A stretch of 64,000 nucleotides of DNA from Minisyncoccia bacterium. GTDB lineage: Bacteria > Patescibacteriota > Minisyncoccia > Phycocordibacterales > JAACPR01. Positions 31,087 through 51,656 of the stretch are shown here, piece after piece (positions within the stretch are counted from its first letter, which is position 1; the number at the start of each line of letters is the position of its first letter). The notes beneath the pieces were generated by a model. That model searched no databases. It was not told the DNA's origin and saw only the letters and a list, made by a program, of their open reading frames with translations. The stretch is taken from NCBI GenBank assembly GCA_047639165.1, contig JBLINH010000001.1, positions 6,054 through 70,053 of the forward strand. The letters run 5' to 3'. The translations under genes were made by a program, and so were the position numbers.

Positions 31087-32490
31087 TTACTCTTCGTCAA
31101 TGTTTTCAAGCTCTATAATCACATCTATCTTTGAAGCGTCTTTAGGAAAACTCTTTTTCCATAGAGGTTTTACAGTAGCCTCTGCTCTTGTAATGCTTGG
31201 AAAATCTTGAAGAACATCCTTCATATCTTTTCTTTGTGATCCGGCAAGACTTTCTTTTAGGGCCTCTATATCTGTCTGCCAAACAAAGTGAACTTGTCCT
31301 TTTACTAAAACGTTTATCTTGTCATCCTCTGAAGGCGTGATCTCAAATGATATGTTATCAGGGTTTTGAATGGCAATATTCTCATTTAGATTTATATTGC
31401 TCAAGGTTTTTGAAGCCAGTATTGTACCAATTGAGTTTGTGTCGAAAACAAAAGCTTCAAGTGTTCCTTTCAAAGTTATTTCTATTACTGTATCACCTTT
31501 GTCTTCTTCTGATGTTATTTCAAATATAAAACTATCATCTGTATAGTGGATCAAGAAGTTATCAGTTACATCTTCATTGATTTTTGATATTAGATCTTCT
31601 TTAATCTTGGATTTTAGTTCTTCTACCACTTTCTCTTTGTCTTCTTCACTAACTATCTTTTTAATTCCAACAAAACCACCAGTCATACCACCTTGTGTCT
31701 TTGCAGAGAACTTATCAAATTGTTTTAGGCCACTAAAACCTGGGATAGTGAAAGTAGTTTCTTTAATATTGTATTCATCTCCAGTGCTATCAGCAAATAC
31801 TTCAACTATTAATTCACCCGGTACTACCTTTCCATCTACTTCTTTGTACCCTGGTACTGAAATTGAATTATCTACTCTGTATATAAGTCCATCTTCATTT
31901 TGAAATCGTGTGTTCTTTATTAAAGGATATGAGTCTTTTGAATATTTGTTGGATACAACTATCTTTCCAGAAGCTTTTGTTTTTACTGAAGCTTCACCAG
32001 AAGCTTTAACAGTTCCACTGCTTGTAGATTCAATATTCAACGGTTTGTATGAAAGTTCCTCGGAAAGTGCAATATCCACATGATTTGCTTCAAGTGTTGT
32101 TTCTATATTAGCTTGCGCTTCTTTTGGAGAAATTCTAACTTCTGTGCCACTTAAGTTTAATAGGAATATCACAAGAACTAATATTCCGACAATACCACTA
32201 CCAATTATTCCGATCTTCTTAAATCGTCCACCACCTCTCTCTTCGAAATCAGCCATTGAAGAAACACGGGTTCTTTTTGTAGGCTGTGGAGGAGTTACTC
32301 CACTGATAGTTCTTCTGACAGTTCTAACAGGTGCTGCGGTAGATACTCTTGGACCAACTTTGTTTATCTTTACAGCAGCAACTAAAGGCTCCTCTTTAGA
32401 GACCTTTTTCCTGTTCTTGGGAATAGGAATATTCCTGATTGATTTTTTCTGTGCTGGTGGCACAACGTCTTGTAGAAAATTTTTGTCCAT
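31087..32490 (-). CDS. Bitopic membrane protein: basic cytoplasmic N-terminus, one TM, large extracytoplasmic domain
   Basis: 467 aa with a single TM around residues 95-115 and no recognisable catalytic motif. It lies downstream of the FtsA/PilM-like gene. Confidence 0.5.
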   Translation of the reverse strand: MDKNFLQDVVPPAQKKSIRNIPIPKNRKKVSKEEPLVAAVKINKVGPRVSTAAPVRTVRRTISGVTPPQPTKRTRVSSMADFEERGGGRFKKIGIIGSGIVGILVLVIFLLNLSGTEVRISPKEAQANIETTLEANHVDIALSEELSYKPLNIESTSSGTVKASGEASVKTKASGKIVVSNKYSKDSYPLIKNTRFQNEDGLIYRVDNSISVPGYKEVDGKVVPGELIVEVFADSTGDEYNIKETTFTIPGFSGLKQFDKFSAKTQGGMTGGFVGIKKIVSEEDKEKVVEELKSKIKEDLISKINEDVTDNFLIHYTDDSFIFEITSEEDKGDTVIEITLKGTLEAFVFDTNSIGTILASKTLSNINLNENIAIQNPDNISFEITPSEDDKINVLVKGQVHFVWQTDIEALKESLAGSQRKDMKDVLQDFPSITRAEATVKPLWKKSFPKDASKIDVIIELENIDEE

Positions 32491-32529: not shown

Positions 32530-33714
32530 CTACTTAGTAGACTGATTTAAGAATGTTCCTATTAATTCCATAAATACATCATCTACTACGCCCGGATTAA
32601 CTAATATTTCATCTGAGAAAGTAGAGTGATCTAGCAGGAATACATTAGTTTTTTTGTTAATGTCTATACTATTTACACTAAATTCATTACTTTTAAGAAT
32701 ATTAGTAAATAGGTCTTTTAGATCTTTGTCAACACTAACAAAAATAACTTGAGGTAATTCTCTTTTGTTTCCAAATGTTTCAAGAATTTGTTCTAGCATG
32801 TTTAACCATTCTTTTTCTAGTTTAGGTAGTAGTTTGTTAACTTTCTTTTTACAACTAGTATCTATTTCTTTTTTAGAGATTGTTCTTATTGAAGATATGG
32901 CAGAGGCATAGTCTGTTTCACATTCTTCCATAACTTTTCTTATGAAGTAGTGTTTTCCATGAGGCATACTGACTATGTTCACTAACCTATCATTTCTGAC
33001 TAAACCAATGTCAGTAACTTCACCGCCGATATCTATAAACAAGAAATTTGGAGTATTCTTGAAAATGTTTCTCATCGCACTAAAGAAGATTAGTGGATGT
33101 GTCCTGTGGTTTATATGGTCTACTGTTTCAAAATTATGTTTTATCTTTTTTTCAACTTCGTCGATAGATTCATCTGCTACAGAACTTATGTAGAAAGAAA
33201 TATCTAAATTAGTTATTTTCTTATCGAAAGGATTGGTAAGGTTGTACCCGTTTACGTTTACATACGTAATATCTTTCTCAACTATCGTTTGGCCCTTTGT
33301 ATTACTATTTTTACTTTTCAATTCTTCCTTTACAATTTTCCTGAATATCTCCTTTGTAAATTTAAATGGTTTGTCTTTATCTATATAAACATCTTTAGTA
33401 TGTGATACATACCAAGGAGAAGAATATACAACGTATATATCTTTTACTTTACTAAGAACATCATCGATCTTGGTTTCAGGAAGACCTGTTTCTTTGATAT
33501 CTAAAATTACTTTGTCTAATGTTTTCAAAAGAGTTGTAACAAAAGATGATGAAGTCTGTGAATCTTTAAAATATTCAAATATTCTAGTGGTATAAAGAAT
33601 TGTTGGTATTTCACCTGACATATCAATAATACTCCCTCCGATACTAGAACTTCTAATATCGAAAACTATAGATAAAGTTTTATCCTTTCCTTTTTTACTA
33701 AAAAGAGATGACAT
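32530..33714 (-). CDS. Actin-fold ATPase of the FtsA/PilM family
   Basis: N-terminal LSIVFDIRSSSIGGSII and FIDIGGEVTDIGLV are phosphate-binding motifs of FtsA/PilM/MreB-type ASKHA ATPases. Confidence 0.55.
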   Translation of the reverse strand: MSSLFSKKGKDKTLSIVFDIRSSSIGGSIIDMSGEIPTILYTTRIFEYFKDSQTSSSFVTTLLKTLDKVILDIKETGLPETKIDDVLSKVKDIYVVYSSPWYVSHTKDVYIDKDKPFKFTKEIFRKIVKEELKSKNSNTKGQTIVEKDITYVNVNGYNLTNPFDKKITNLDISFYISSVADESIDEVEKKIKHNFETVDHINHRTHPLIFFSAMRNIFKNTPNFLFIDIGGEVTDIGLVRNDRLVNIVSMPHGKHYFIRKVMEECETDYASAISSIRTISKKEIDTSCKKKVNKLLPKLEKEWLNMLEQILETFGNKRELPQVIFVSVDKDLKDLFTNILKSNEFSVNSIDINKKTNVFLLDHSTFSDEILVNPGVVDDVFMELIGTFLNQSTK

Positions 33715-33756: not shown

Positions 33757-35505
33757 TTATTCCAGTACAGCTTTTATCCTTCGTACTCCGGAAGAAGAAG
33801 CTTCTTCTTTTTTGATTCTAAATTTACCAAGTACACTTGTATTTTCTACGTGAGGACCACCACAAAGTTCTTTACTAACATCTCCAATTGAATAGACTGA
33901 TACAACTTCTCCGTACTTCTCTCCGAAAAGTGAAATCGCACCTTCCGCTTTAGCAGTGTCTATATCCATGTCTTTTTGTTCTACTGATATGCCTTTTTCA
34001 ATTTTGTCATTCACCCACGCTTCTACTTTTTCTTTTTCTTCGTCTGTCATTTTCTCTCCATGTGAAAAATCAAATCTCAATCGATCGGGTGTAATGTTAC
34101 TTCCTTTTTGCTCAACGTTATCTCCCAGGACTTCTCTTAATGCTGCTTGAAGAAGATGCGTCGCTGTATGGTACTTAACTTCCATCTCACTAGTTCCGGA
34201 TAGTCCACCCTTGAACTTACCAGCTGAAGACGTTCTTGAAAGATCCTGATGTTTTTTAAATTCTTCTTCATACTCCTCTCTGTTCACACTAGTCCCCTTT
34301 TCTTCTGCGAGTGAAACGGTAAGGTCAATTGGTAGTCCGTATGATGAGAATAGTTTGAAAGCATCGATACCACTAATATCTGCACCAGAAATTTTTCCGA
34401 ACTCACGCAATCCTTGTGAAAGTGTTTTTGAGAATTTTATAACCTCTTCTTCTATTGTAGATTTTATCGTTGTAAGATTTTCTTTTAGTTCAGGATATTG
34501 TTTGTCATATGTATCCAAAATAGCATCTACTAGAGATGATATCTGATCTCCATGTAAGTTATGATTGTTTGTATTAAAAGCAGCTCTCCTAATTAGTCTT
34601 CGGAGTATGTACCCTCGGTCTGTGTTTGATGGGAGTATTCCATCACTGATCAAAAACACCGAAGCTTTAATATGATCAGATAGTATTCTAGCTGATCTTT
34701 CTGTTTTGGTAATTTCTCTAGAAATATTCATCAACTCTTCAAATAGATCTGTGTCATAAACAGAATCTTTTCCTTGTACTACTGCGACCAATCTTCCGAA
34801 CCCAGCTCCAGTGTCAACATTCTTGTTAGGCAACTTACCTATAACCTTCCCTTCTTTTTTTTGATATTCCATGAATACATCGTTCCAAATCTCAACAACT
34901 TCTTGTTTTTCATCTGCTTGTATATATTCTTCCTTTGTTAGATTTCCTAATCCTTCTTTTGTTGTGTCATAGAACATCTCAGAATCAGGACCACAAGGAC
35001 CATTGTCTCCTGCACTCCACCAGTTTGAATCTGCTCCCATATAATATATCCTGTCCTCTTTTATATACTTCTTCCAGATGTTGTATGACTCTTCATCTTT
35101 TGGAGCATTATCATCTCCTTCAAATACAGTTACGTATAACCTTTCTTTATCTAGCCCTAGCTCTTCGGTAAGAAATTCAAAACTCCACTGAATAGTTTCT
35201 TCTTTAAAGTAGTCTCCTAAAGACCAGTTCCCAAGCATCTCAAAAAAAGTATTGTGTGTGTTGTCCCCCACTTCATCTATATCAACAGTACGTAAACACT
35301 TTTGGGAGTCTACCAAACGAGTTCCTTTGGGGTGCTCCTCTCCTAGAATAAATGGAATCAGAGGTTGCATACCAGCAGAATTAAATAAAGTGTTATCAGT
35401 AACACCCTTCTCATCTGTAGGAACTAGAGATGCAGATTTAATAATTGCATGCCCTCTTTCTTCAAAGAATTTTAGAAATTTTTCTCTTATCTCGCTTGAT
35501 TTCAT
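33757..35505 (-). CDS. alaS: Alanine--tRNA ligase, compact form without the C-Ala domain
   Basis: AlaRS catalytic N-terminus (FNSAGMQPL, WSLGDYFKEE) and editing-domain His motif (HTATHLLQAALREVLG). Only 582 aa. Confidence 0.85.
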   Translation of the reverse strand: MKSSEIREKFLKFFEERGHAIIKSASLVPTDEKGVTDNTLFNSAGMQPLIPFILGEEHPKGTRLVDSQKCLRTVDIDEVGDNTHNTFFEMLGNWSLGDYFKEETIQWSFEFLTEELGLDKERLYVTVFEGDDNAPKDEESYNIWKKYIKEDRIYYMGADSNWWSAGDNGPCGPDSEMFYDTTKEGLGNLTKEEYIQADEKQEVVEIWNDVFMEYQKKEGKVIGKLPNKNVDTGAGFGRLVAVVQGKDSVYDTDLFEELMNISREITKTERSARILSDHIKASVFLISDGILPSNTDRGYILRRLIRRAAFNTNNHNLHGDQISSLVDAILDTYDKQYPELKENLTTIKSTIEEEVIKFSKTLSQGLREFGKISGADISGIDAFKLFSSYGLPIDLTVSLAEEKGTSVNREEYEEEFKKHQDLSRTSSAGKFKGGLSGTSEMEVKYHTATHLLQAALREVLGDNVEQKGSNITPDRLRFDFSHGEKMTDEEKEKVEAWVNDKIEKGISVEQKDMDIDTAKAEGAISLFGEKYGEVVSVYSIGDVSKELCGGPHVENTSVLGKFRIKKEEASSSGVRRIKAVLE

Positions 35506-35519
35506 ATGATGACTTTAAT

Positions 35520-35738
35520 TTACTTAACGTATATTTGCAAGATAAAACTTACAATCATTAGCGATATTCCTACGACCGCGTATAACTTCTCTTTTTTAAT
35601 AGTAGTGTAAACATCTTTGTCTAGCTTGTGTTCTTTAAGTACGTGAGAATGTACTCTGACAACAGCCATGGCAATTAATATTTCTCCTAAAAGTTCTAGT
35701 GTTAGTGCTAAAGTGTACATAGTAATTAATGTGAGCAA
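35520..35738 (-). CDS. Small 2-TM membrane protein (72 aa)
   Basis: Two hydrophobic helices. Overlaps the 3' end of the ATP-cone/Mrr gene by 13 nt. Confidence 0.45.
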   Translation of the reverse strand: MLTLITMYTLALTLELLGEILIAMAVVRVHSHVLKEHKLDKDVYTTIKKEKLYAVVGISLMIVSFILQIYVK

Positions 35739-36556
35739 ATAATATCAATATTTTCTATAATCTCATCGATCTTTTCATCTGACAATCCTATTTCTTTCAT
35801 AACTTCTCTCTCGTCCCTTAGAGATCTACAATTAACAATTCCTCTGTCAAGAAGTTCATTCTTATTACTCTTTGAGAGCTGAGCTACACAAGTTAATGGG
35901 TGTAGAGTCGTCTCTTCCATAAGATCGTACAGATTCCCTTTTTTGGGGTAGTCCCAACTGATGAGATCATACGTTCCAACACAGTTAACGTATTTTCGAG
36001 CTGTGTGGGTAAACTTGGTGTTTGTAACCATTAGACCCTGAGTCATTTTTCTTTTTTTACCTCCCAAATGAAATTCTTCACTCTGAAGGTCATCAAAACG
36101 AGCTTTTATATACAAAGCTGTTTTTGTATCTGTTTTTATTCCACTTTTGTTATGAAATTTGGCTTCAGTGATGATAAGCTCCTTTTCGTTATACGCAATA
36201 ATATCTACTTCATGATCAGCACAGTGACCTTTAAGGGTAACTCCTACTTCAGTGGTAAAACCTTTTGCACTGAATATTTCAGCGATAAACTTTTCAAATG
36301 GAAATCCTGAAGGACCAAGATCTAAAACAGATCTTCTGATTGAATATCTTAAGGCAGATTTTTTTTCTGTTTTTTTCAAAAGCTCAAATGCTTCTTTGTA
36401 TATGTCTGTAGTTGTTGAACCGTCTTTAATATCTTTTTGGATCTTACTTGTTATGTCGTTTGCGACAAATACAGTTGCCCCTGCACGCTCTAGTGATCCT
36501 TTTAACTTATCAGGATCGAAAGACTCTTTTTCCCCATTGTTCTTAACGATTTTCAT
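35726..36556 (-). CDS. ATP-cone domain fused to an Mrr-type (PD-(D/E)xK) restriction-endonuclease-like domain
   Basis: N-terminal MKIVKNNGEKESFDPDKLKGSLERAG...RYSIRR is a canonical ATP-cone. Then FEKFIAEIF...DHEVDIIAYNEKELIITEAKFH gives a D..(D/E)xK core. Confidence 0.7.
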   Translation of the reverse strand: MKIVKNNGEKESFDPDKLKGSLERAGATVFVANDITSKIQKDIKDGSTTTDIYKEAFELLKKTEKKSALRYSIRRSVLDLGPSGFPFEKFIAEIFSAKGFTTEVGVTLKGHCADHEVDIIAYNEKELIITEAKFHNKSGIKTDTKTALYIKARFDDLQSEEFHLGGKKRKMTQGLMVTNTKFTHTARKYVNCVGTYDLISWDYPKKGNLYDLMEETTLHPLTCVAQLSKSNKNELLDRGIVNCRSLRDEREVMKEIGLSDEKIDEIIENIDIICSH

Positions 36557-36557
36557 A

Positions 36558-37019
36558 TTAGCTTTTGATAAATAGTTTTACGGTATCAATATCTTGATCC
36601 ACTGGTATCTCAAAGATATTCAATGTTACAAGCTCATCATTTAGTGTGGCTGTAAAATTTCTATCCTCTGGTCCAGTGTATGTAACTTTCACATCAGTAG
36701 GAGTAATTACTTGAACACAACCATCACCTCCATCAGGATCGTTTATATTGAACTTAATTTCTGATTTATCATCCACATCTACAACTTCAGCATTAAATGA
36801 ATGACATGGACTTGGAAGATCAAGTGTTGAAACAAAAGCATGTTCACCGTCTTTGTATTGATGCTTTGTGATGATATTTATATTAGGTCGGTTAGAATCT
36901 TCCTGGACTGCTTCCTCACGAGGGGTGTTTTCGTTATCACTTCCAGTTGATGAATAGAAGGTAAAACCTACTATCAGAAGAAGTATTACTAAGATGGAAA
37001 TTATGGTTTTCTTATTCAT
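36558..37019 (-). CDS. Small secreted/anchored protein (153 aa)
   Basis: N-terminal signal/TM segment. Lies 1 nt upstream of the ATP-cone/Mrr gene. Confidence 0.45.
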   Translation of the reverse strand: MNKKTIISILVILLLIVGFTFYSSTGSDNENTPREEAVQEDSNRPNINIITKHQYKDGEHAFVSTLDLPSPCHSFNAEVVDVDDKSEIKFNINDPDGGDGCVQVITPTDVKVTYTGPEDRNFTATLNDELVTLNIFEIPVDQDIDTVKLFIKS

Positions 37020-37059
37020 ATAAATGGTGGTTACCTGTAATTTACTAATTATACCCTAA

Positions 37060-37090
37060 AATAAAGGGCACCCCAATGAGGTGCCCGTGT
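37060..37090 (-). terminator. Rho-independent terminator
   Basis: 7-bp GC stem gggcacc/ggtgccc, with a T-run (ttttatttt) on the minus strand after the coiled-coil gene. Confidence 0.55.
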
Positions 37091-37096
37091 TGTGGT

Positions 37097-37423
37097 TTAC
37101 TTAGCGTCTTTAATAGAAGCAACCTCTTCTTCTAGTTTTCCTAACCTCTTTTCTAAGTTTTCGACTGTCTTATCACACTGGTCATTTTTGACTATAAGTT
37201 CGAACACTTCGATTTTACCCTTCATATTCTTTTCCTTTTTTTGGAGAGTTCCAATTTCAATCTTTGCTTTTGTTAGTTCGCTCTCTAATTTAGTCTTTCG
37301 AGATTCTAGATTTGAAACATCTCCACATCTACTGCGAAGACTTTCACTCAGAGTTTCAAGTTCTTCTTTTAGTTTGGTGTTCTCTCTGATAATATCTTCT
37401 ATACTCTTAGAATCAGTACTCAT
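37097..37423 (-). CDS. Coiled-coil protein (108 aa)
   Basis: Heptad-rich and Lys/Glu-rich, with a downstream terminator. The overlapping plus-strand ORF is judged an antisense artefact. Confidence 0.45.
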   Translation of the reverse strand: MSTDSKSIEDIIRENTKLKEELETLSESLRSRCGDVSNLESRKTKLESELTKAKIEIGTLQKKEKNMKGKIEVFELIVKNDQCDKTVENLEKRLGKLEEEVASIKDAK

Positions 37424-37515: not shown

Positions 37516-37800
37516 CTATTGGTTACCCCTGTTCCTTGTCATATGAGTTTTTGCCCATTTAAACATAAGTTTTGAACTTAATTCCCTGTGCATTTTAAGT
37601 TTATCAGGAGATGAAAACTCTACACATTTACGGCAATACATCGCAAGAAGTAGGCCGTCATCATTGGCGTTGGAGTTGTACCAAGTGAGAGTGCTTCGTT
37701 TTCCACACCTCGAACATTTTCTAAAGAAGGTAGACCAAAGAAAAATCAGTACTAATAGTGCGAGCACAATAAATGAAACAATAATTATGGTTTTCATCAT
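37516..37800 (-). CDS. Membrane-anchored zinc-ribbon protein
   Basis: A TM helix followed by CSRCGKR...CRKC (CxxC...CxxC). Confidence 0.4.
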   Translation of the reverse strand: MMKTIIIVSFIVLALLVLIFLWSTFFRKCSRCGKRSTLTWYNSNANDDGLLLAMYCRKCVEFSSPDKLKMHRELSSKLMFKWAKTHMTRNRGNQ

Positions 37801-37893
37801 AGTATGTATTTGGGTCAGGTGTTCTTTTTTGTAGATGTGAATCACCTACTTTCATAATCACGTTACCATATTAAAGTATTTTAACAATTATAC

Positions 37894-38931
37894 TTACAAT
37901 ATAACCCCTCCACCTAAGCATTCGTCATCTTTATAGAAAACAACAGATTGGCCACTGGCTACTGATTCCTGTGTGTCTTTGAAGATTATTTCATCTTCAT
38001 GGAGTACTGCCTCTTGTAGGGGCTGTCTGTACCTAATTCGAGCTTCTATATCTCCTTGTACAGGATCTTTGACGAAAGAAACATCCTTTAGTAAAACTTT
38101 CTTCTTGGTTCCTTCTCCTTTTTTCTCACTGCTTACAGTTACTGTGTTTTTTTCTATGTCTTTTTCTATAACGTAATATATAGGATCATCAGTTCCCTTT
38201 TTTGTGATAGTAAATCCGTGCCTCTCTCCTATCGTATAGAGTACAGCACCATTGTGTATTCCTATGATATTTCCGTCTGTATCCAGTACATTTCCATCTT
38301 CTGTTTTGATGTGTTCTTTAAGAAATTCTTTCATATCTATATGACCGATGAAGCATAATCCTTGACTATCTTTTTTCTCTGATGTGAAAAGATTAAATTT
38401 CTCTGCTAGCTTTCGAACTTCACTCTTCTTTATGTTTCCAATTGGGAACATGGTTTTTTCTAGCTGTTCTTTTCTTAGGGTCCAAAGAAAATATGTCTGG
38501 TCTTTGTTTTCATCGATCGCCTTGAGTAGTTTTCCGTCTTTGGTTTGAGCATAGTGTCCTGTGGCTACAAAGTCTGCACCACCCTCAATGGCAAAATCAA
38601 AAAACTTACCGAACTTTATATATTTGTTGCACATTACATCAGGATTAGGAGTTCTACCTTCTTTGTATTCAGAGACCATGTGATCTATTACATCTTTTTT
38701 GTAATCGTCTGAGAGATCTATCTTTTTGAAAGGTATATCTAATTTGGCACATATTCTCATAGCATCTCGCATCTCTCTTTTCCAGTTACAATTTAGAAAC
38801 TCTGGGTGCCATATTTTTATAAACACTCCAGTAACATCAAAACCCCTCTCCTTTAGAAGAGCAGCTGAGACTGATGAATCTACTCCACCAGAGAGTCCTA
38901 CGTATACTTTCTTGTTTGGCATATGAGTCAT
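37894..38931 (-). CDS. mnmA: tRNA-specific 2-thiouridylase
   Basis: PP-loop VYVGLSGGVDSSVSA, and MnmA central and C-terminal regions. Confidence 0.9.
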   Translation of the reverse strand: MTHMPNKKVYVGLSGGVDSSVSAALLKERGFDVTGVFIKIWHPEFLNCNWKREMRDAMRICAKLDIPFKKIDLSDDYKKDVIDHMVSEYKEGRTPNPDVMCNKYIKFGKFFDFAIEGGADFVATGHYAQTKDGKLLKAIDENKDQTYFLWTLRKEQLEKTMFPIGNIKKSEVRKLAEKFNLFTSEKKDSQGLCFIGHIDMKEFLKEHIKTEDGNVLDTDGNIIGIHNGAVLYTIGERHGFTITKKGTDDPIYYVIEKDIEKNTVTVSSEKKGEGTKKKVLLKDVSFVKDPVQGDIEARIRYRQPLQEAVLHEDEIIFKDTQESVASGQSVVFYKDDECLGGGVIL

Positions 38932-39974: not shown

Positions 39975-41213
39975 CTAAGTTGGAAGATTTGATGGTGCGA
40001 TACTTTTCTTAGAAGGAACACGCCCAAGAGTAGGAGTTCCTGCAACACTTCCTGGGAAATGGAAAATTGTGGCTAACTCTTCTGTGTTTAGAATAATCTT
40101 CTTTCTTTTATTACCTCTATAGTCGTCCTTCCAGAAATAGTCCCTCATCTTGTACGCCTTTAATATTTCTTTCCTCATTCTTTTAACTTTTCCTCCGAAA
40201 GGATCTTGCCATGGGTAGTTGAAGTCTGTAACCATTATAGGTTTAAAACTATTTAGATCAGGAGATCCATATTGTCTGAAGCTTCCAACTAGTCCTCCGA
40301 TGTTAACACCTTGGAACTCATCTTTCTCAGCTATGTATATTAATCTAACACCGGTATCAAAAGCAGTCTTAGATATACTTCTTTCTAGAGCTGATATCTT
40401 AAACTTCATTCCTTCTGTTTTGTTAGAAATTTTTGTTTTATTATCTCCTTCCCCGATCTCTTGAAGACTTCCTTCCTGAAGTTCTTTGACTAAAGTAGCT
40501 GCAGTATCTTTCCATAGGTCTGTTAGACCAAACCACTTATTAGGATCTCTATCTTCTTTTACATGAGCTCGTACAATGATTTGAATCCAGGCATTCTCAC
40601 CTTTTTTTAAGGACCCAAGAAATTCAATAACTGGAGTTATTGGATCAACCTTGAATTCTTCTTTTGGATCCTTATCTAACCCAAAGTCTACATACGTCTT
40701 AATTGGATATGGATCTGGTTCTGATAATCCCATCTCAATTCCAAACATTGAGTATTTACCTGATTCATCTTCAAACTTCGATGCATAGTCATCAACTTCA
40801 ACAACCTCAACATCCGGAAACTGTCCGTATAACTGTGATTCAATGTATCCTCTTAATGCTTTCCTAGTTTGTATATAGAAATGAACTTTTCCATCTGTTG
40901 ATGCAATCTCTAGAGAGAACCAAGCTCTAACTTTTCCGTGCCAGTACTTATCAATCCAAGTAGTTTCTCCACTTTTTTGTTGAAGAGCCAAAAGGAATAA
41001 TTCCATAGCAACTGGAGACTTCATCATTTCAATAGGAGGTATAACTTCAATAAGTGTCATCTCTTGAGAATTAATATAATCCCTTCTTCTATAGTCTATC
41101 CAAATTGAAATTGCGAAGTACGTGAAAATAATAGGAAGTACTAAAGGCAACAATAGTAATAGAAAGTCTAAGGACTCTAGGAGAATATCTAATAGTTCTT
41201 CTTGCATTTCCAT
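39975..41213 (-). CDS. Hypothetical membrane-anchored protein (412 aa)
   Basis: N-terminal TM and an acidic leader, with no recognisable domain. Confidence 0.45.
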   Translation of the reverse strand: MEMQEELLDILLESLDFLLLLLPLVLPIIFTYFAISIWIDYRRRDYINSQEMTLIEVIPPIEMMKSPVAMELFLLALQQKSGETTWIDKYWHGKVRAWFSLEIASTDGKVHFYIQTRKALRGYIESQLYGQFPDVEVVEVDDYASKFEDESGKYSMFGIEMGLSEPDPYPIKTYVDFGLDKDPKEEFKVDPITPVIEFLGSLKKGENAWIQIIVRAHVKEDRDPNKWFGLTDLWKDTAATLVKELQEGSLQEIGEGDNKTKISNKTEGMKFKISALERSISKTAFDTGVRLIYIAEKDEFQGVNIGGLVGSFRQYGSPDLNSFKPIMVTDFNYPWQDPFGGKVKRMRKEILKAYKMRDYFWKDDYRGNKRKKIILNTEELATIFHFPGSVAGTPTLGRVPSKKSIAPSNLPT

Positions 41214-41281: not shown

Positions 41282-42310
41282 TTAAGCTATAGAATATTTT
41301 CCTTTTGAATCTTTCTTAAAGAATTTTGGATTTTGGAGGTTTACAATAATTGTATTCTCCTTTACGTATCTTTCTTTTAGAACTTTTCCAATAATCTGAT
41401 CTTTTGTTAGAGATCCGTTTTTGGTGATGACTTCTCCAATAACATCTCTGACTACTCCACTTAAGTATCCCCAATCCTTTAGAGCGTATAGCCCTCGTCC
41501 CACAAGAACAAATCTAGGATCCTTGATTAGTTCGTTATGACATGTTGCAACGTGCGCCTTTTTATCAAATAGTTCAGTGATAGTTTTAGCAACTTCTCTA
41601 AAGTGAATTGGTGATCCATGTCGTCTGATTACAAGGTAAGCGTAATCTCGCATTCCTTTAACATTAATATTTGGTGAATCAGCTCGTCCCCATTCTCCTA
41701 GCGGGTTTTGACTGATGTTCTTTGAAATTCCTAACCATCGACTTAAAATTACTGTATCTTTGTATTTGTCTGAAACTGTCTTTAGGTGTGTTAGGAATGA
41801 CTCCAATAGTTCTGATTCGTTGATGATCTCATCGATGCTTAGACCTTTGTATAGTTTTTCAATTGATTGGTGTACTTGTTCAGCAATCTTTTGATCAATT
41901 GCCCATCGTAGATGGAATCGATCGTTCTCTTTGAATTTCACAAAAGGATCTCCAAGAACTAGAAGAAAATGAACATGATTACGGATACTCTCATTCTTTG
42001 AAAGTTCCTCTAGAAGTTCTTGTTCTGAAACAATAGATCCTAGTGAATCGATAATATCTTTAAGTTCGTTAAAAGTTTCTTCTGATTTTTTGAAATCATC
42101 AGATTTTCTAATGTTTGTAAGAGAGTATTCTTCAATCTGCCTAACTCGCTCTCGAGTTATACCATATGATTGACCGATGGCTTCAAGAGTCATCTTTTTG
42201 ATGTCTTTTCCAAGACCATAACGTTTAATCAATACGTCCTGAGAACGTTTTGAAAGTGTCTCTAACAATTTTTTTGTAACTTGTTTTGGTTTAAAACTTA
42301 AGGTTGCCAT
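41282..42310 (-). CDS. Sigma-70 region-4 HTH domain fused to an uncharacterised C-terminal domain
   Basis: N-terminal LEAIGQSYGITRERVRQIEEYSL is a sigma70_r4-type HTH. The remaining ~270 aa are unassigned. Confidence 0.55.
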   Translation of the reverse strand: MATLSFKPKQVTKKLLETLSKRSQDVLIKRYGLGKDIKKMTLEAIGQSYGITRERVRQIEEYSLTNIRKSDDFKKSEETFNELKDIIDSLGSIVSEQELLEELSKNESIRNHVHFLLVLGDPFVKFKENDRFHLRWAIDQKIAEQVHQSIEKLYKGLSIDEIINESELLESFLTHLKTVSDKYKDTVILSRWLGISKNISQNPLGEWGRADSPNINVKGMRDYAYLVIRRHGSPIHFREVAKTITELFDKKAHVATCHNELIKDPRFVLVGRGLYALKDWGYLSGVVRDVIGEVITKNGSLTKDQIIGKVLKERYVKENTIIVNLQNPKFFKKDSKGKYSIA

Positions 42311-51581: not shown

Positions 51582-51656
51582 GGTGGACCTGACAGGATTT
51601 GAACCCGCTACCTCCTCAGTGCAAATGAGGCGCTCTACCAATTGAGCTACAGGCCC
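51582..51656 (-). tRNA. tRNA-Ala (anticodon UGC)
   Basis: The reverse complement folds as a cloverleaf. Acceptor GGGCCTG/CAGGTCC has a G3:U70 pair, the anticodon loop is TTTGCAC, the T-loop is TTCAAAT, and the discriminator is A with CC encoded. Confidence 0.85.

Follow-up and report, generated by a model that had tools for sequence, protein, structure and literature searches.

A candidate adenine-nucleotide-gated nuclease in a housekeeping gene array of Paceibacteria-type bacteria: an ATP-cone joined to an AF1548/Mrr_cat PD-(D/E)xK domain

In this study, we analysed a stretch of 64,000 nucleotides from a Minisyncoccia bacterium of the Patescibacteriota (GenBank assembly GCA_047639165.1, contig JBLINH010000001.1, positions 6,054 to 70,053 of the forward strand), hereafter the window, with a focus on a minus-strand gene encoding a 276-aa protein in which an ATP-cone is followed by a PD-(D/E)xK nuclease domain of the AF1548/Mrr_cat type and a probable AF1548-like C-terminal domain. 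Our data favour, with a probability of about 0.55, a housekeeping nuclease gated by adenine nucleotides and acting in DNA repair or nucleic-acid turnover, and not in phage defence. In the window this gene lies between genes for a 153-aa protein and a small membrane protein, and an earlier sequence-only reading of the same DNA had treated the three as an operon following abortive-infection or toxin-like logic; the observation itself was essentially right and its interpretation partly so, the trio being a clade-specific arrangement inside a housekeeping array.

ATP-cones have been studied as master switches of ribonucleotide reductases (RNRs) and of the repressor NrdR. In the original ATP-cone paper, by Aravind, Wolf and Koonin in 2000, the domain was reportedly also noted in a few other proteins, such as archaeal 2-phosphoglycerate kinase. 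Full-text literature searches found no paper on a nuclease that is fused to an ATP-cone or regulated by one; in the ATP-cone papers retrieved, the domain is described as belonging to RNRs and NrdR. The ATP-cone-nuclease family thus appears to be uncharacterised, though it is present in databases.

Domain architecture and predicted structure

The fusion of an ATP-cone to a PD-(D/E)xK Mrr-cat nuclease, proposed in the sequence-only reading, was borne out by profile and structure comparisons. The Pfam models for the ATP-cone (PF03477, residues 1-69, 28.6 bits against a gathering cut-off of 25.8, a small margin) and for Mrr_cat (PF04471, residues 84-199, 35.6 bits against 21) both matched above their cut-offs, and most homologues also carry a precomputed PF03477 match. 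The AF1548-like_C model (PF22357) gave a sub-threshold match at residues 228-269 (16.7 bits against 23.9), and several homologues carry a precomputed match to it. By sequence, the sole solved relative was AF1548 (PDB 1Y88), found with phmmer at E=3.6e-27 and with a profile at E=3.8e-39 over residues 90-269, so that the alignment extends through the C-terminal domain to residue 269 of 276. No signal peptide or transmembrane segment was found in the nuclease.

An AlphaFold2 model built from a 50-sequence alignment reached a mean predicted local distance difference test score (pLDDT) of 90.2 and a predicted TM-score (pTM) of 0.82. The modelled N-terminus comprises strands 2-4 and 10-12 and helices 15-24, 29-42, 49-63 and 65-79 (pLDDT ~83-95), and the prediction thus reproduces the ATP-cone fold, a beta-hairpin lid over a four-helix cone. 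In Foldseek comparisons against the PDB, the N-terminal 79-84 residues matched NrdR ATP-cones from Escherichia coli (9fvr, 9fxk, 9gex) and Streptomyces coelicolor (7p37) at 1.6-3.1 A, followed by weaker matches to RNR cones (human, P. aeruginosa, A. aeolicus, P. copri and L. blandensis); RNR matches for the ATP-cone were also returned by a PHROGs search. The nuclease and C-terminal half matched AF1548 (E=3e-15, target-normalised TM-score 0.76). Five helices make up the modelled C-terminal domain (pLDDT ~84-95 except for the last few residues), which is probably nucleic-acid binding.

Catalytic and nucleotide-binding residues

The DHEVD and ITEAKFH motifs highlighted in the sequence-only reading are present in the protein, and E88, H115, E116, D118, E131, K133, H135, T178 and N179 were invariant in alignments of 26 and 50 sequences covering members from the candidate phyla radiation (CPR) and Bacteroidota. 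The catalytic residues D118, E131 and K133 are thus intact across the family, as is the N-terminal helix Glu, E88, and their D-13-E-x-K spacing is that of the residues predicted as catalytic in AF1548, D38/E51/K53 (PMC1821046). Because the D...ExK constellation is invariant and its spacing matches AF1548, the nuclease is very likely to be catalytically competent.

The nucleotide site was mapped by profile alignment to E. coli NrdR, with residue roles taken from published work on the structure of E. coli NrdR (bioRxiv 10.1101/2025.03.28.645925) and on S. coelicolor NrdR studied by cryo-EM (PMC9110341). Residues V51, K53, E59, F61, K65, L66, S105 and I108 of E. coli NrdR align with I3, K5, E11, F13, K17, L18, T49 and I52 of the nuclease, and these inner-site equivalents were invariant or at least 90 % conserved in both family alignments. 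In S. coelicolor NrdR, each of V48, K50, E56 and K62 is needed for nucleotide binding (PMC9110341). The sequence therefore gives good support to adenine-nucleotide binding at the predicted inner site, and gating of the nuclease by ATP/dATP, as the sequence-only reading had supposed, is plausible because the binding residues of NrdR are conserved; two further ligand positions, weighed below, are not.

Distribution and inheritance of the family

At least 2865 homologues of the 276-aa protein were present in an index of 5.8 billion proteins, and a HMMER search of 1.84 billion cluster representatives (50 % identity) yielded 1107 clusters at E<=1e-3, of which 391 reached E<=1e-30. With few exceptions, the 150 top-scoring clusters were about 265-300 aa long and matched end to end, and the family is an established one with a constant, single architecture. 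Its members are mostly Patescibacteria (Paceibacteria, 'Parcubacteria'), the others belonging to Bacteroidota (Flavobacterium, Carboxylicivirga, Roseivirga and Pontibacter) and to Criblamydia (Chlamydiota); the family is core-like in Paceibacteria/'Parcubacteria' and sporadic in the other two phyla. A scan of contigs with a single-protein query gave 13 loci, a figure that is no measure of prevalence across species. In databases, the proteins are labelled 'ATP cone domain-containing protein', 'restriction endonuclease' or 'Holliday junction resolvase', and NCBIfam holds no curated model for the ATP-cone nuclease family.

Mean pairwise identity was 0.46-0.47 for the nuclease, as compared with 0.40 for MltG, 0.53 for MnmA and 0.57 for AlaS, all encoded in the same gene array. 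Moreover, the divergence of the nuclease was correlated with that of these three proteins (Pearson r=0.59-0.65, Mantel p ~0.001), the pattern expected of a gene passed on vertically together with the core genome. No relative of the nuclease was found in 50,697 phage records or among the viral contigs of IMG/VR, and only two plasmid records carried one. We conclude that the gene is a vertically inherited, housekeeping-type gene of CPR bacteria.

Genomic neighbourhoods

In total, 107 loci (individually designated L with a number) were collected, about 95 after removal of duplicates. Three approaches were used to score neighbours: hidden Markov models (HMMs) built for the two small-protein families, probes taken from the window, and an unbiased clustering in which every neighbouring open reading frame (ORF) was included. 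Pfam and NCBIfam supplied names for the recurrent clusters. The canonical array of CPR loci reads DUF8128, mltG, mnmA, the nuclease gene, MgtC (optional), a Cas4-like PDDEXK_1 exonuclease, Ogt (optional), a family-4 uracil-DNA glycosylase (UDG), PepF (optional), alaS and an FtsA-like gene. The dominant neighbour is mnmA, which in 58 of 70 loci is encoded on the same strand, no more than 900 nt upstream of the nuclease gene. Of the 62 loci whose flank extends for 2.5 kb or more, 36 carry one or more of the Cas4-like, UDG and Ogt genes downstream. A downstream alaS within 3.5 kb is present in 29 of 62 loci (27/62 without duplicates); one of the three repair genes is the immediate next gene in 29 of 77 loci. 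This repair cluster (Cas4-like, Ogt and family-4 UDG, often with MgtC and PepF) stands between the nuclease gene and alaS, 0-3 kb downstream of the former, in L020, L024, L032, L045, L048, L058 and about 30 others. Neither defence genes nor RNR (nrd) genes were among the recurrent neighbours of the family. As a further observation, the block of sigma-like, DUF8128, mltG and mnmA genes recurs across CPR loci.

A single partner recurs outside the CPR, namely a gene for a beta-CASP/RMMBL metallo-nuclease that follows directly downstream and often overlaps; it was identified in Flavobacterium (L010/L011), in metagenomic loci (L086, L088), on a Criblamydia plasmid (L100) and on a Pontibacter megaplasmid (L101). 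With its RMMBL 'RNA specificity' domain, this protein most resembles RNases of the aCPSF1 type. The last two loci, from two phyla, share a four-gene cluster comprising the nuclease, the beta-CASP protein, an archaeal-type nucleoside/AMP phosphorylase and a PRK07199 ribose-phosphate diphosphokinase (Table 1). The phosphorylase scored 601.6 bits with TIGR02645 (cut-off 434.6) and fell below the cut-off of the AMP phosphorylase model (506.5 against 535). The Criblamydia cluster is flanked by genes for phosphoketolase, glgP and acetate kinase, and may be a nucleic-acid or nucleoside catabolism/salvage island. In this context, the CPR and non-CPR surroundings both concern nucleic-acid and nucleotide metabolism.

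Proposed function

In the mechanism that we favour, the protein would act as a metal-dependent PD-(D/E)xK endonuclease whose helical C-terminal domain binds nucleic acid, and its N-terminal ATP-cone would bind ATP, dATP or ADP. The bound nucleotide may switch cleavage through the oligomeric state or the packing of the domains, as in RNR and NrdR (PMC9110341), and cleavage of DNA, or possibly RNA, in repair, turnover or salvage would thereby be coupled to the nucleotide pool. Such a switch could operate in either direction, the nuclease being active when dATP/ATP suffices for repair synthesis or, conversely, being activated for salvage when pools fall.

Several points weigh against this proposal. 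Compact CPR genomes can keep gene order without functional coupling, and a neighbourhood of repair genes is suggestive and not proof; indeed, the contexts outside the CPR (beta-CASP alone, or together with the phosphorylase and the kinase) point to salvage or RNA processing and not to repair. The tight apposition of the 153-aa and nuclease genes (1-19 nt) leaves room for a lineage-specific functional link. Within the ATP-cone, the Arg of the 'KR' pair, a phosphate ligand in S. coelicolor NrdR (R51), is not conserved, being N6 here and variable in the family, and the outer-site Tyr (Y131 in E. coli NrdR, Y128 in S. coelicolor) aligns with Arg74; because neither residue is conserved, the ligand specificity may differ from that of known ATP-cones. 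This Arg is not universal among NrdR proteins, since the position of R51 is occupied by Ser in the E. coli protein (K53-S54). Finally, literature searches found no biochemistry for any family member, AF1548 included.

If the proposal is true, ATP-cone allostery would extend to DNA cleavage, in a widespread family of constant architecture, and the family may show how ultra-small, nucleotide-auxotrophic bacteria tie DNA repair or nucleic-acid scavenging to nucleotide supply. More tentatively, this could be the first ATP-cone to control an enzyme other than RNR, namely a nucleotide-pool-sensing endonuclease, encoded by a core gene of Paceibacteria-type CPR bacteria, which rely on scavenged nucleotides, that links DNA repair, salvage and dNTP homeostasis. 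On this view, incision or degradation of DNA would follow ATP/dATP levels, in concert with Cas4-like exonuclease, UDG and Ogt in the CPR and with the beta-CASP nuclease, the phosphorylase and a phosphoribosyl-pyrophosphate-synthetase-like kinase elsewhere. For annotation, our results correct the family labels 'restriction endonuclease', 'Holliday junction resolvase' and, by implication, 'defence'.

Alternative explanations

An unlikely alternative, and the one that survives best, is a lineage-specific module unrelated to defence, in which the 153-aa protein, the small membrane protein or both work with the nuclease, for instance through membrane tethering or by helping to scavenge nucleotides from DNA taken up and degraded at the envelope. 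The small gene had been read as a 72-aa ORF with a TTG start, overlapping the nuclease gene by 13 nt; its two hydrophobic segments stand, and it most likely starts at ATG 35720 and encodes 66 aa, because an orthologue alignment and the NCBI record of an identical protein (66 aa) agree on this start. With that start, the ATG lies 5 nt past the nuclease stop codon (TAA-ttact-ATG). Between its hydrophobic segments, the 66-aa protein carries a conserved charged loop, VRVHxHxLKEHKLDxDVY...KEK.

On the upstream side, a 1-nt spacer (TAA-T-ATG) separates the 153-aa gene from the nuclease gene, as the sequence-only reading had noted; the protein that it called secreted has a single N-terminal hydrophobic segment, predicted to be a signal peptide or a signal anchor, and its secretion is thus a prediction. 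After this segment comes a beta-rich domain of about 110 aa with two conserved cysteines, C72 and C101. Its AlphaFold2 model, from a 4-sequence alignment, had a pLDDT of 62.8, with a helix at residues 3-25 and seven strands, and a Foldseek search of the PDB gave nothing below E=0.09 and so no significant fold match. Neither small protein belongs to a family in Pfam, NCBIfam, PADLOC or PHROGs. For one 153-aa orthologue (P0272, L107 444-899), a weak precomputed match to PF27154 ('ORF11_beta') was noted.

All three ORFs are real genes and not chance ORFs, since homologues or positional orthologues with conserved motifs exist. Searching the index of 5.8 billion proteins returned 1 protein for the 66-aa query and 4 for the 153-aa query, its word index being limited for short, divergent proteins, and local HMMs were used on the fetched loci instead. 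The 153-aa orthologues (31-59 % identity) occupy the same position directly upstream of the nuclease gene, and orthologues of the small protein (50-71 % identity) were found in L014, L015/16, L018/19 and L104/105. Both small proteins are under purifying selection and keep conserved motifs. Furthermore, every copy of the 153-aa gene that was found adjoins a nuclease gene, almost always with a gap of 1-19 nt and once just downstream (L073), and in the window all three genes sit in one unit delimited by a putative promoter and a terminator, all of which speaks for joint work with the nuclease.

Insertion into a vertically inherited array explains this adjacency equally well, however, and is expected to produce it. 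The 153-aa family adjoins the nuclease gene in 10 of 70 loci, plus L103-L107, and the small-protein family in 5 of 87 loci from three lineages, plus L104/L105, found later, all of them close relatives. Conservation of the trio as a unit had been proposed as a check in the sequence-only reading; the full trio is limited to relatives with a nuclease identity of at least 58 %, namely L014/L107, L104/L105 and L018, in the last of which the 153-aa gene is truncated. Close relatives can also do without either small gene (L015, L017 and L018), L015 having lost the 153-aa gene and L017, independently, the small gene. In L032, a homologue of the small protein lies 3.2 kb downstream of the nuclease gene, three genes away and beyond the Cas4-like, UDG and PepF genes, which suggests that its adjacency to the nuclease gene in the window arose by loss of intervening genes. 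Moreover, a role at the membrane sits poorly with a nuclease devoid of signal peptide and transmembrane segment, and neither small protein has a known family or fold. We thus regard the 153-aa and 66-aa genes as lineage-specific insertions in the array running from mnmA through the nuclease and repair genes to alaS, probably co-transcribed here and not conserved partners.

Two of these loci deserve separate mention. In L018 (3538-3840), the 153-aa orthologue has been shortened to 100 aa and a gap of 161 nt comes after it, either through decay or as an assembly artefact. L102 was considered as a case of a 153-aa gene without the nuclease and was rejected: the first 20 nuclease codons remain after the 153-aa gene (572-631), followed by an aminotransferase fragment and pyrG, and an identical 153-aa protein in L103 precedes an intact nuclease start. 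L102 is a deletion or an assembly chimera and no evidence of decoupling.

An ATP-gated nuclease for RNA processing or RNA turnover, tied to tRNA/RNA metabolism, strikes us as rather improbable. It would fit the position of mnmA as the top neighbour, the frequent alaS downstream and, outside the CPR, the pairing with a beta-CASP protein close to aCPSF1-type RNases. Enzymes of the Mrr_cat/AF1548 type are, however, typically DNases, the genes between the nuclease gene and alaS in most CPR loci are for DNA repair, and the linkage to mnmA and mltG may be mere inherited order.

A regulator of the NrdR kind is very unlikely. Here the cone would control oligomerisation, and the nuclease fold and C-terminal domain would bind DNA without cutting and so regulate genes of nucleotide metabolism, a design of sensor plus DNA-binding module that parallels NrdR, whose cones are the nearest to this one by sequence and structure; outside the CPR, the gene also heads nucleotide-metabolism clusters. 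Against this stand the invariance across phyla of E88, D118, E131, K133 and the flanking His residues, unexpected for pure binding, the missing Zn-ribbon and the absence of RNR genes from the recurrent neighbours.

Least probable of all, and highly improbable in our view, is a defence, abortive-infection or toxin module in which the ATP-cone senses a phage-caused collapse of ATP/dATP and frees the nuclease, with the membrane protein as partner, antitoxin or effector: fusions of a sensor to a PD-(D/E)xK nuclease are common in defence, Can2, Cdn1 and CARF_PDDEXK are weakly echoed in structure and sequence, the PADLOC candidate PDC-S02 was matched at 31 bits, spacers of only 1 nt and 5 nt separate the genes, and the trio recurs in L014/L107 and L104/L105, but that trio is confined to close relatives, among which the partners were lost independently, the nuclease gene holds a fixed position in a housekeeping array with repair and salvage neighbours, is conserved at core-gene level and co-diverges with mnmA, alaS and mltG, phage and viral relatives and recurrent defence neighbours are lacking, the PADLOC match spans the generic nuclease domain only, and the small-protein homologue of L032 lies away from the nuclease gene. 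The abortive-infection or toxin logic of the sequence-only reading is therefore unsupported, with position, conservation, mobility, defence-database and neighbour evidence all contrary to it.

Organization of the locus

Coordinates of the features are collected in Table 1. In the window, the nuclease gene is flanked by leuS, the sigma-like gene, DUF8128, mltG and mnmA towards one end and by alaS, the FtsA-like gene and the gene for ribosomal protein S4 towards the other, with an even GC content across the region. Between mnmA and the nuclease gene come two small lineage-specific genes, then a terminator, then the 153-aa gene. No homologue of the 108-aa or the 109-aa protein encoded by these two genes turned up in the first 99 loci fetched, in which mnmA as a rule directly adjoins the nuclease gene or the 153-aa gene, and both genes appear to be lineage-specific insertions as well. 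Probes for Cas4-like, UDG, Ogt, MgtC, beta-CASP, phosphorylase and phosphoribosyl-pyrophosphate (PRPP) synthetase genes found no match in the window, and a positive control worked.

The TATAAT hexamer just upstream of the 153-aa gene (37053-37048) is the likely promoter of the unit, a proposal that draws on its match to the consensus. The tight packing of the three genes described in the sequence-only reading is confirmed; the operon is, however, probably longer, since the alaS start lies 14 nt beyond the stop codon of the small gene and alaS is probably co-transcribed with it.

Table 1. Positions of the features discussed, in the coordinates of the window or of the plasmid named.
Feature	Record	Position	Strand	Basis
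342-aa Sigma70_r4/HARE-HTH protein gene, conserved upstream end of the syntenic block	window	41282-42310	-	
DUF8128 protein gene, conserved upstream end of the syntenic block	window	39975-41213	-	
mnmA	window	37894..38931	-	Pfam tRNA_Me_trans domains
109-aa protein gene, one transmembrane segment, CxxC pairs C44/C47 and C71/C74, between mnmA and the 153-aa gene	window	37516-37845	-	
108-aa coiled-coil protein gene, between mnmA and the 153-aa gene	window	37097-37423	-	
Strong intrinsic terminator closing the upstream unit, after the 108-aa gene	window	37066..37086	-	9-bp stem, 7 GC pairs, then TTTATTTT
TATAAT -10-like hexamer, putative promoter of the unit led by the 153-aa gene	window	37048..37053	-	consensus match only
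153-aa gene	window	36558..37019	-	ORF list
276-aa nuclease gene	window	35726..36556	-	ORF list
ATP-cone domain, residues 1-80 of the 276-aa protein	window	36317..36556	-	PF03477
PD-(D/E)xK nuclease domain, Mrr_cat/AF1548 type, residues 84-199	window	35960..36307	-	PF04471
AF1548-like C-terminal helical domain, residues ~205-276	window	35729..35944	-	1Y88 alignment and model
Small gene as 72-aa ORF, TTG start	window	35520..35738	-	ORF list
Small gene as 66-aa ORF, ATG at 35720	window	35520..35720	-	orthologue alignment and NCBI record
alaS, short 582-aa alanyl-tRNA synthetase	window	33757..35505	-	Pfam tRNA-synt_2c and tRNA_SAD
394-aa protein gene, conserved downstream of alaS in CPR loci	window	32530-33714	-	weak precomputed FtsA match in relatives
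467-aa protein gene, next after the 394-aa protein	window	31087-32490	-	
Four-gene cluster, Criblamydia sequanensis (L100)	plasmid NZ_LK031773.1	12749-17356		
Four-gene cluster, Pontibacter actiniarum (L101)	plasmid NZ_CP021236.1			

Beyond alaS, the 394-aa and 467-aa proteins had no Pfam match at 1e-5. The alanyl-tRNA synthetase (AlaRS) is short in the window and in related CPR loci (L004, L017, L018 and others), at 580-589 aa, and Pfam recognises in it only the catalytic tRNA-synt_2c and tRNA_SAD domains. The canonical bacterial AlaRS measures about 875 aa, and the short enzymes presumably lack its C-terminal part. At the scale of the whole window (1-64000), nearly all genes longer than 110 aa lie on the minus strand and the cumulative GC skew falls monotonically; the window is within one replichore and its genes are strongly co-oriented. 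A single tRNA, tRNA-Ala (51582-51656), was identified in it, and no other Rfam family was found.

Comparison with known systems

The sequence-only reading had stated that this is no described defence system, and the comparison with PADLOC-DB v2 agrees: no match was obtained for the small proteins, and the best match of the nuclease was the partial one to PDC-S02, so that membership of a catalogued system was rejected. Likewise, a toxin-antitoxin or abortive-infection pair was rejected on the low adjacency of the partners and their independent loss in close relatives. Can2, Card1, Cdn1, CARF_PDDEXK and PDC-S02 share with the family the design of a nucleotide sensor joined to a PD-(D/E)xK nuclease, and their weak Foldseek or HMM matches run through the nuclease domain. 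Unlike these fusions of the CRISPR or CBASS (cyclic-oligonucleotide-based antiphage signalling system) type, the present family uses an ATP-cone as its sensor in place of CARF or SAVED, its surroundings are free of defence genes, those of CRISPR and CBASS included, and the gene is chromosomal, syntenic and vertically inherited.

With the Mrr type IV restriction endonuclease, the protein shares the Mrr_cat catalytic family. An identity as such a restriction enzyme was rejected, as there is no Mrr_N winged helix, the N-terminus is an ATP-cone, the C-terminal domain is probably of the AF1548 type and the context is one of housekeeping and repair. The archaeal Holliday junction resolvase Hjc, a name used for this protein in NCBI and JGI records, was rejected too (PF01870 at 14.6 bits against a cut-off of 21.1; best Hjc-type Foldseek match, 2eo0, at E=1.3e-2).

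The nuclease and C-terminal domains of AF1548, from Archaeoglobus fulgidus, are homologous to residues 90-269 at 34 % identity and have the same D...ExK catalytic pattern, but AF1548 has no ATP-cone, and its chain of 199 residues enters the alignment at residue 23. As a product of structural genomics, it gives no mechanism; the one comment on it that the literature searches brought up is in a Global Ocean Sampling (GOS) paper, which predicts it to be a restriction endonuclease (PMC1821046).

On the side of the sensor, the cones of the RNRs (NrdA, NrdD and NrdB) belong to the same Pfam family and fold and follow an allosteric on/off logic of ATP versus dATP; they give weaker structural matches, and the enzyme that they regulate is RNR, whereas here it would be a nuclease. 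The closest ATP-cone is that of NrdR, with 24-26 % identity to the E. coli protein and 18 % to the S. coelicolor protein and with a conserved inner site. The nuclease is not itself an NrdR: TIGR00244 scored 13.5 bits against a cut-off of 124.65, over the cone only, and no Cys4 ribbon is present in the sequence. As compared with NrdR, it lacks the Zn-ribbon, the outer-site Tyr and the equivalent of R51, it carries its cone at the N-terminus and not at the C-terminus, its output domain is an intact nuclease, and no link to nrd genes was seen. NrdR nevertheless provides the precedent for an ATP-cone that controls a nucleic-acid-binding module through nucleotide-dependent oligomerisation.

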